A stretch of 64,000 nt of DNA. It comes from Escherichia coli (lineage in GTDB: Bacteria > Pseudomonadota > Gammaproteobacteria > Enterobacterales > Enterobacteriaceae). The stretch lies in NCBI RefSeq assembly GCF_024502345.1, contig NZ_JALDNN010000001.1, one strand, 5' to 3'. A program made the translations under genes and the position numbers. Below the pieces are notes generated by a model that did no database searches, was not told the DNA's origin, and was given only the letters and a program-made list of their open reading frames with translations. Of the stretch, positions 60,115 to 61,517 are shown one piece after another (the stretch's first letter is position 1; each line of letters opens with the position of its first letter).

Positions 60115-61517
60115 ATGGACCAGAAGCTGTTAACGGATTTCCGCTCAGAACTACTCGATTCACGTTTTGGCGCAAAGGCCATTTCTACTATCGCGGAGTC
60201 AAAACGATTTCCGCTGCACGAAATGCGCGATGATGTCGCATTTCAGATTATCAATGATGAATTATATCTTGATGGCAACGCTCGTCAGAACCTGGCCACT
60301 TTCTGCCAGACCTGGGACGACGAAAACGTCCATAAATTGATGGATTTGTCGATCAATAAAAACTGGATCGACAAAGAAGAATATCCGCAATCCGCAGCCA
60401 TCGACCTGCGTTGCGTAAATATGGTTGCCGATCTGTGGCATGCGCCTGCGCCGCGAAAAATGGTCAGGCCGTTGGCACCAACACCATTGGTTCTTCCGAG
60501 GCCTGTATGCTCGGCGGGATGGCGATGAAATGGCGTTGGCGCAAGCGTATGGAAGCTGCAGGCAAACCAACGGATAAACCAAACCTGGTGTGCGGTCCGG
60601 TGCAAATCTGCTGGCATAAATTCGCTCGCTACTGGGATGTGGAGCTGCGCGAGATCCCTATGCGCCCCGGTCAGTTGTTTATGGACCCGAAACGCATGAT
60701 TGAAGCCTGCGACGAAAACACCATCGGCGTGGTGCCGACTTTCGGCGTGACCTACACCGGTAACTATGAGTTCCCGCAACCGCTGCACGATGCACTGGAT
60801 AAATTCCAGGCCGACACCGGTATCGACATCGACATGCACATCGACGCTGCCAGCGGTGGCTTCCTGGCACCGTTCGTCGCCCCGGATATCGTCTGGGACT
60901 TCCGCCTGCCGCGTGTGAAATCGATCAGTGCTTCAGGCCACAAATTCGGTCTGGCTCCGCTGGGCTGCGGCTGGGTTATCTGGCGTGACGAAGAAGCGCT
61001 GCCGCAGGAGCTGGTGTTCAACGTTGACTACCTCGGTGGTCAGATTGGTACTTTCGCCATCAACTTCTCCCGCCCGGCGGGTCAGGTAATTGCACAGTAC
61101 TATGAATTCCTGCGCCTCGGTCGTGAAGGCTACACCAAAGTACAGAACGCCTCTTACCAGGTTGCCGCTTATCTGGCGGATGAAATCGCCAAACTGGGGC
61201 CGTATGAGTTCATCTGTACCGGTCGCCCGGACGAAGGCATTCCGGCGGTTTGCTTCAAACTCAAAGATGGTGAAGATCCGGGATACACCCTGTACGACCT
61301 CTCTGAACGTCTGCGTCTGCGCGGCTGGCAGGTTCCGGCCTTCACTCTCGGCGGTGAAGCCACCGACATCGTGGTGATGCGCATTATGTGTCGTCGCGGC
61401 TTCGAAATGGACTTTGCTGAACTGTTGCTGGAAGACTACAAAGCCTCCCTGAAATATCTCAGCGATCACCCGAAACTGCAGGGTATTGCCCAGCAGAACA
61501 GCTTTAAACACACCTGA
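60115..61517 (+). pseudogene. gadA: Glutamate decarboxylase alpha (gadA) interrupted by a +2 frameshift near 60452-60455
   Basis: N-terminal 118 codons in one frame (ORF 60052..60528) and remaining ~348 codons in the +1 frame (ORF 60411..61517); span 1403 nt = 466 codons + stop + 2 nt; gccgCGaaaaatgg where intact Gad reads ...HAPAPKNGQAVG. Confidence 0.8.

Follow-up and report, generated by a model that had tools for sequence, protein, structure and literature searches.

The gadA gene in the 64,000-nt stretch of Escherichia coli DNA analyzed here (the window) carries a 2-nt duplication that breaks its reading frame. The best explanation, and in our view a very probable one, is that the duplication is a real, inherited loss-of-function allele carried by a natural E. 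coli lineage, in which Gad activity would then rest on gadB. The features on which the argument draws are listed here with their positions in the window.

58507-59904, plus strand: ccp (yhjA), the upstream neighbor that fixes the locus as gadA
60016-60035, plus strand: GAD box (GadE binding site) upstream of gadA, an exact match to the 20-nt consensus
60115-61517, plus strand: gadA (glutamate decarboxylase alpha) pseudogene, natural stop included, assigned by synteny, the gadA-type 5′ part, and the repaired product
60115-60528, plus strand: truncated frame-0 open reading frame (ORF) ending in TGA at 60526-60528, with 113 native and 24 unrelated residues (137 amino acids)
60454-60455 (equivalently 60452-60453), plus strand: 2-nt CG insertion, a tandem duplication and the sole indel relative to intact gadA
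60456-60460, plus strand: run of five A residues (A5) abutting the CG insertion on its 3′ side, as read from the sequence
60456-61517, plus strand: rest of gadA, from Lys114 to the C terminus, in a frame offset by 2 nt and translated without a stop
60525-60528, plus strand: ATGA, in which the premature stop overlaps the in-frame Met137 codon, a possible reinitiation point
60942-60944, plus strand: codon of the pyridoxal phosphate (PLP)-binding Lys276 (SGHK motif, residues 273 to 276), 3′ of the frameshift
61888-62712, plus strand: gadX, an intact ORF of 274 amino acids with the exact sequence of WP_256632701.1
62724-62837, minus strand: GadY small RNA, full length (Rfam RF00122, 150 bits, model positions 1 to 114 of 114)
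63080-63808, plus strand: gadW, intact, with a protein identical to the reference

The disrupted gene is gadA, one of the two glutamate decarboxylase genes of the strain; it encodes glutamate decarboxylase alpha, a group II PLP decarboxylase (PF00282). Within the acid fitness island, it has ccp (yhjA) on one side and gadX on the other, the arrangement seen in annotated E. coli genomes. Between 60120 and 60357 there are 24 substitution sites at which the three gadB copies examined all depart from gadA, and at every one of them the window has the gadA allele. Once repaired, the protein matches the GadA structure (PDB 1XEY) over residues 1 to 466, slightly better than it matches GadB (1PMM). The window thus has the same ccp-gadA-gadX-gadW-mdtFE locus, GAD box, and gadA-specific 5′ sequence as reference E. 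coli gadA (1XEY; WP_000372240.1), and it differs from that reference by a 2-nt duplication after codon 113 and by a product that ends at 137 residues.

An earlier note on this DNA had claimed that a 2-nt insertion shifts the frame of gadA after about codon 113. This is borne out by comparison with E. coli 1919D62 (L001, WP_000372240.1), whose gadA is intact: when aligned, the two genes differ by one indel, the CG, and by nine substitutions, all of them synonymous. The change is GCGCCG>GCGCCGCG, in which the 2-nt CG is duplicated. The window reads GGCATGCGCCTGCGCCGCGAAAAATGGTCAGG at 60437-60469 and CATGCGCCTGCGCCGCGAAAAATGGTCAGG around the CG site; the CG-bearing form of the site is GCGCCGCGAAAAAT, and the form without the extra CG is GCGCCGAAAAAT. 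MAFFT places the CG at 60452-60453; in a tandem duplication of this kind, 60454-60455 describes the same insertion. Codon 113 is CCG (Pro; 60451-60453), and codon 114 is turned into CGA. In silico removal of the CG yields a 466-amino-acid protein that is 100% identical to WP_000372240.1.

The frame-0 product follows GadA through ADLWHAPAP (113 residues) and then continues for 24 unrelated residues; the TGA at 60526-60528 agrees with the stop that the same note had placed at 60528 after 24 unrelated codons. Translation from 60456 is open to the native C terminus, QQNSFKHT, followed by the natural stop. The note was therefore right that the downstream part is out of frame, but its label for that frame, “+1”, was not, since the offset is 2 nt, equivalent to −1. 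The GSSEA loop (residues 125 to 129) and the SGHK motif are both encoded 3′ of the frameshift, in the other frame. The SGHK motif includes Lys276, the PLP Schiff-base lysine of the GadA and GadB structures. Because the PLP site lies downstream in the other frame, the normal start gives only an N-terminal fragment without the cofactor site, consistent with the earlier claim that the PLP part is not made from the annotated start. The window gadA lacks an uninterrupted 466-codon ORF containing Lys276; with that ORF broken, this copy is a pseudogene and not a functional member of gadA. Met131 and Met135 codons lie just 5′ of the Met137 codon, and gene callers run on metagenome contigs predict a 336-amino-acid ORF from Met131. 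A reinitiation product, which would be missing residues 1 to 130 or more, including the GSSEA loop, is predicted from the sequence to be inactive.

The CG dinucleotide was duplicated, most likely by replication slippage, and the duplication shifts the frame after Pro113. Ribosomes starting at the normal AUG then make a 137-residue fragment without the PLP-phosphate loop and Lys276, and this gadA copy would yield no active decarboxylase.

The earlier note had named a sequencing or assembly error as the finding that would overturn its claim. Such an error would mean that the true gadA is intact. Two observations fit this reading: a near-identical isolate, GCA_050022275.1, has the intact sequence, and of the three other small indels in the window, two shorten a homopolymer. 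However, a search of a 15-billion-protein collection found the exact 137-amino-acid frameshift product on seven ENA metagenome contigs, and the CG was present in all seven (L002 to L008). Among these carriers is ERZ915402, labeled as a human gut metagenome of PRJEB6997. The Logan assembly of run ERR2855845 (L022) also carries the CG. Carrier contigs that are long enough show ccp-gadA-gadX-gadW-mdtF synteny, and they were produced with different assemblers. Two of them, L006 and L007, may be one sample assembled twice; hence, we count at least six or seven independent carrier samples. The duplication is identical in all eight short-read contigs, which were assembled independently and share one haplotype, and a dinucleotide duplication outside a homopolymer would be an atypical platform error. 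Moreover, indel density in the window is very low overall, with 3 indels over 35 kb when the comparison is with a complete genome of 99.6% identity and no indels over 35-53 kb when it is with strain EC24. The recurrence of the same CG in eight contigs and the low indel density make a sequencing error very unlikely, and we regard an artifact in the window as extremely improbable. The question raised by the earlier note is thus answered in the negative.

The public annotation points the same way. The exact DppF and GadX sequences of the window (MCQ7032907.1 and MCQ7032921.1, respectively) are recorded on the same 4,736,520-bp NCBI contig, with accessions 14 apart. PGAP gives pseudogenes no protein record, and the genes lying between dppF and gadX account for a gap of 14 accessions only when gadA is left out of the count. 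We infer that the NCBI annotation already treats this gadA as a pseudogene.

A second way in which assembly could mislead is an exchange between the paralogs, with a CG that is truly in gadB threaded into gadA contigs or, in reverse, with such an error in the draft that appears intact. From about 60360 onward, gadA and gadB are nearly identical, and the CG site lies 95 nt past the last gadA-specific difference (60357), in the zone where alleles are shared; GCA_050022275.1 is also a draft assembly, represented here by a 50-kb contig. Against this, the contig from which the window was taken is 4.7 Mb long, the CG falls in the ccp-gadA-gadX context in each of eight assemblies produced by different assemblers, and k-mers of 119 to 141 span the distance from 60357 to the CG site. 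We consider such an exchange very unlikely overall, and it is more credible for the single intact draft than for the carriers. One carrier, L006 (the ERZ28660770 scaffold), has a 5-nt gap and a run of Ns inside gadA at the equivalent of 60724-60738, with gadB-like alleles downstream; this gap is probably a scaffolding join of gadA and gadB reads.

The CG allele is rare. An 80-nt probe found 10,828 gadA or gadB places in the 5,425-5,426 complete RefSeq E. coli genomes, all at 97.5% identity or less, which corresponds to the 2-nt gap; none of these genomes had the CG insertion in either gadA or gadB. An exact scan of JGI metagenome contigs gave no matches to the 35-nt mutant allele. When we sought the allele in NCBI drafts by way of the 336-amino-acid C-terminal ORF, all 10 loci fetched had other lesions, and in the literature on gadA frameshifts or pseudogenes in E. 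coli and Shigella we found no description of the CG allele. The lesions in the E. coli and Shigella drafts are likewise N-terminal frameshifts or deletions in gadA or gadB that spare the 336-amino-acid C-terminal ORF. None of them is the CG duplication itself; several affect gadB, and some come from assemblies of visibly low quality. They include a +G at nt 372 (L011) and larger deletions (L010, L012, L014, and L017). The A5 run next to the CG site (nt 340 to 344) has gained an A in L013 (gadB) and lost one in L015 (gadB) and L016 (gadA; E. coli DEC15E; P0007); some of these A5-run indels are probably homopolymer sequencing errors. The existence of other N-terminal gadA and gadB lesions, in a sample skewed toward lesions of this kind, indicates that losing one gad copy is not unusual.

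We compared the carriers with the window and with other genomes. Over 54115-64000, the carriers are 99.6 to 99.7% identical to the window, whereas the best complete genomes reach at most about 99.1%. Together with the window, the carriers form a clade apart from two reference genomes, 1919D62 and EC24, and they divide into at least three subhaplotypes. The isolate GCA_050022275.1 (L021/L027), found by means of the rare GadX variant of the window, has an intact gadA of 466 codons. Over 12.1 kb (51886-64000), it differs from the window only by one intergenic single-nucleotide polymorphism (61725) and by the absence of the CG. Since this near-identical isolate lacks the CG, the allele is not fixed in the lineage. 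In a neighbor-joining tree of the flanks, built on a few dozen sites with gadA excluded, the isolate was sister to the window and nested among carriers L002 to L005. Taken at face value, this nesting means that the CG site changed state at least twice in the clade, and a history of a single gain and a single reversion would account for this with the fewest steps. The tree is weakened by the fact that metagenome contigs can be chimeric, through coresident E. coli strains or through gadA and gadB.

Gene conversion offers a route for such a reversion. Conversion between gadA and gadB has been published (Bergholz et al. 2007, Mol Biol Evol 24:2323, as cited in PMC10362622), and its signature, a patchwork of synonymous alleles common to gadA and gadB, is present here from about 60360 to the 3′ end. 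What differs from that study is that conversion is proposed here as a possible means of repairing a frameshift. As the CG site is inside the shared zone, conversion of a short stretch of gadA by gadB would remove the CG without further trace. The nine synonymous differences between the window and the closest complete-genome gadA are clustered within 320 nt (60941-61262), and several of them are alleles seen in gadB of other strains; this pattern is consistent with a gadB-derived conversion tract. Repair by gadB-to-gadA conversion is the likeliest explanation for the intact gadA of GCA_050022275.1, and the likeliest history would be a single gain of the CG followed by such repair in one isolate. 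Alternatively, the intact sequence could be a draft assembly artifact in which the assembler followed gadB through the shared segment. Compared with reference GadA, all carriers have 0 nonsynonymous and 9 to 13 synonymous differences. With no other decay in the gene, the allele is either recent or has been homogenized by gadB.

The two or more changes of state within one narrow clade also fit a different reading, in which recurrent mutation makes the CG copy number toggle like a phase-variable contingency site that tunes Gad dosage. Natural indels in the adjacent A5 run of gadA or gadB in other genomes (+A in L013, −A in L015 and L016) are in keeping with this, but they carry ascertainment bias, and several come from error-prone assemblies. 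With only one or two CG units, the site is much shorter than the repeat tracts of known contingency loci; the long repeat tract of a phase-variable locus is lacking, although the CG state differs between near-identical genomes. The two-copy state is absent from the 5,425-5,426 complete genomes in either paralog, which speaks against a high forward rate. We therefore think a mutational switch of this kind quite unlikely. A broader version, in which gadA is a reversibly switched-off spare, with gadB as a template that repairs or spreads the lesion and with the dose tuned in gut lineages, possibly with a low level of GadA carrying an extra Arg, is doubtful but somewhat less so.

A low level of such a protein would require that the frameshift be leaky. 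E. coli tRNA-Lys is slippery on A runs, for example in dnaX. A −1 slip of tRNA-Lys on CGA-AAA-A would restore the frame and give full-length GadA with one additional Arg (APAP-R-KNGQ), leaving the gene down-tuned. The geometry permits this, in that the frame-0 Lys codon at 60457-60459 could slip to 60456-60458, after which the next codon is AAT (Asn115 of native GadA). In this respect, the site is like the programmed −1 frameshifting site of dnaX (A-AAA-AAG), where a tRNA-Lys slip on an A run likewise restores the frame. Unlike dnaX-type sites, however, gadA lacks a complete heptamer, an upstream Shine-Dalgarno-like element, a downstream hairpin, and conservation. There is only a single-tRNA slip site (A-AAA) in place of a full X-XXY-YYZ heptamer, and the CGA in the P site cannot re-pair in the −1 frame. 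No GGAGG-like motif is present in 60430-60455. Folding of the 111 nt around the site is within the range of chance (z = 0.38; 116 of 200 shuffled versions did as well), and the centroid is unstable. The arrangement occurs in none of the 5,425-5,426 complete genomes, and the nearest isolate has the normal frame. The rest of the gene shows no decay, as a leaky gene might, but this is explained equally well by a recent origin or by gadB conversion. Because the downstream sequence is plain wild-type gadA, nothing in it has evolved for frameshifting. We conclude that functional leakiness is exceedingly unlikely and that the CG allele is best treated as a loss-of-function allele.

The surroundings of the disrupted gene are in good order. 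A scan with the GAD box consensus, which we take to be that of Castanie-Cornet and Foster and of Ma et al., gave one match where none was expected. The statement in the earlier note that gadX, gadW, and the gadY region look intact also held: GadX is a 274-residue ORF, GadW is identical to the reference protein, and GadY is full length at 150 bits. Since the GAD box, gadX, gadW, and GadY are all intact, the regulatory part of the island looks functional; the promoter is likewise untouched by the lesion. gadA and gadX have been given as one GadE-dependent unit, gadAX (PMC4222967). After the premature stop, 989 nt of mRNA is left untranslated, and polarity on read-through expression of gadX is conceivable. 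For Rho loading, this region offers only modest stretches with C in excess of G (maximum C-G, 0.14), so that an effect on gadX stays speculation.

Further observations concern this part of the window. Compared with the EC24 allele, GadX has six amino acid changes, and four of these (G246R, P248S, C267R, and I273R) fall within its final 30 residues; the exact GadX variant, WP_256632701.1, is rare, being found on a handful of contigs. Just 3′ of gadA, an A run in a hairpin loop (61547-61554) has eight A residues in the window and seven in several otherwise near-identical haplotypes.

Elsewhere in the window, we observed other changes. A 768-bp IS1 element at 40360-41127 (flanks, 39299-42013), the only IS1 copy in the 64 kb, is 99.9% identical to IS1B in strain EC24. 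At this site, the window lacks about 14 kb that E. coli EC24 has, comprising part of yhjV, ldrD, bcsGFE, bcsRQABZ, and most of bcsC; the loss removes the cellulose synthesis locus in its entirety and truncates yhjV. An lpfD-like fimbrial gene of the lpf operon (29130-30185) has lost one A at 29958 (GTGGATATGG>GTGGTATGG), outside any homopolymer, which shifts its frame after about 276 of 351 codons and makes it a second frameshift pseudogene in the window. At the 5′ end of yhjY (22765-22780), where strain AHM8C212RI has an A8 run in codons 3 to 6, the window has A7; this puts the annotated start out of frame, and the ORF is still open from an upstream ATG at 22698, giving 254 instead of 232 amino acids. 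The segment containing dppB to dppF and yhjV (35202-40359) is 96.9% identical to EC24 and at best 98.6% identical among the 5,425-5,426 complete E. coli genomes, while the left 35 kb of the window is 99.6 to 99.8% identical to its best matches. The exact DppF protein is recorded on a single contig only, and the segment has the look of a recombination tract that was imported. A rearranged match over 40-64 kb and IS hits spread across plasmids had suggested a Shigella origin for the window, but we discarded this idea: the 64 kb has a single IS1, the left 35 kb is 99.6% identical to an ordinary E. coli, and the exactly matching proteins are named as E. coli.

The literature has treated GadA and GadB as interchangeable enzymes whose summed level appears decisive (PMC11210196); we found no statement comparing single and double gad mutants in PMC9628877. 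Given interchangeable isozymes, the expected phenotype of the CG allele is a reduced Gad dose with the system kept, provided that gadBC is intact. Dependence on gadB, a gene outside the window, is plausible, and glutamate-dependent acid resistance would then rest on gadB at a lower total Gad dose, with gadB presumably compensating for the lost copy.

The CG allele is an ordinary lineage-specific pseudogene of a redundant paralog, and the apparent reversion in a near-identical isolate is the only mildly interesting point about it. In extreme acid, survival of the strain is expected to hinge on gadB and on less Gad overall, which is relevant to any use of the strain in acid resistance, GABA production, or colonization work. 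Our understanding of the Gad system is unchanged. The allele provides a clean natural case of the loss of a redundant paralog, with a hint that the surviving paralog can repair the lesion.
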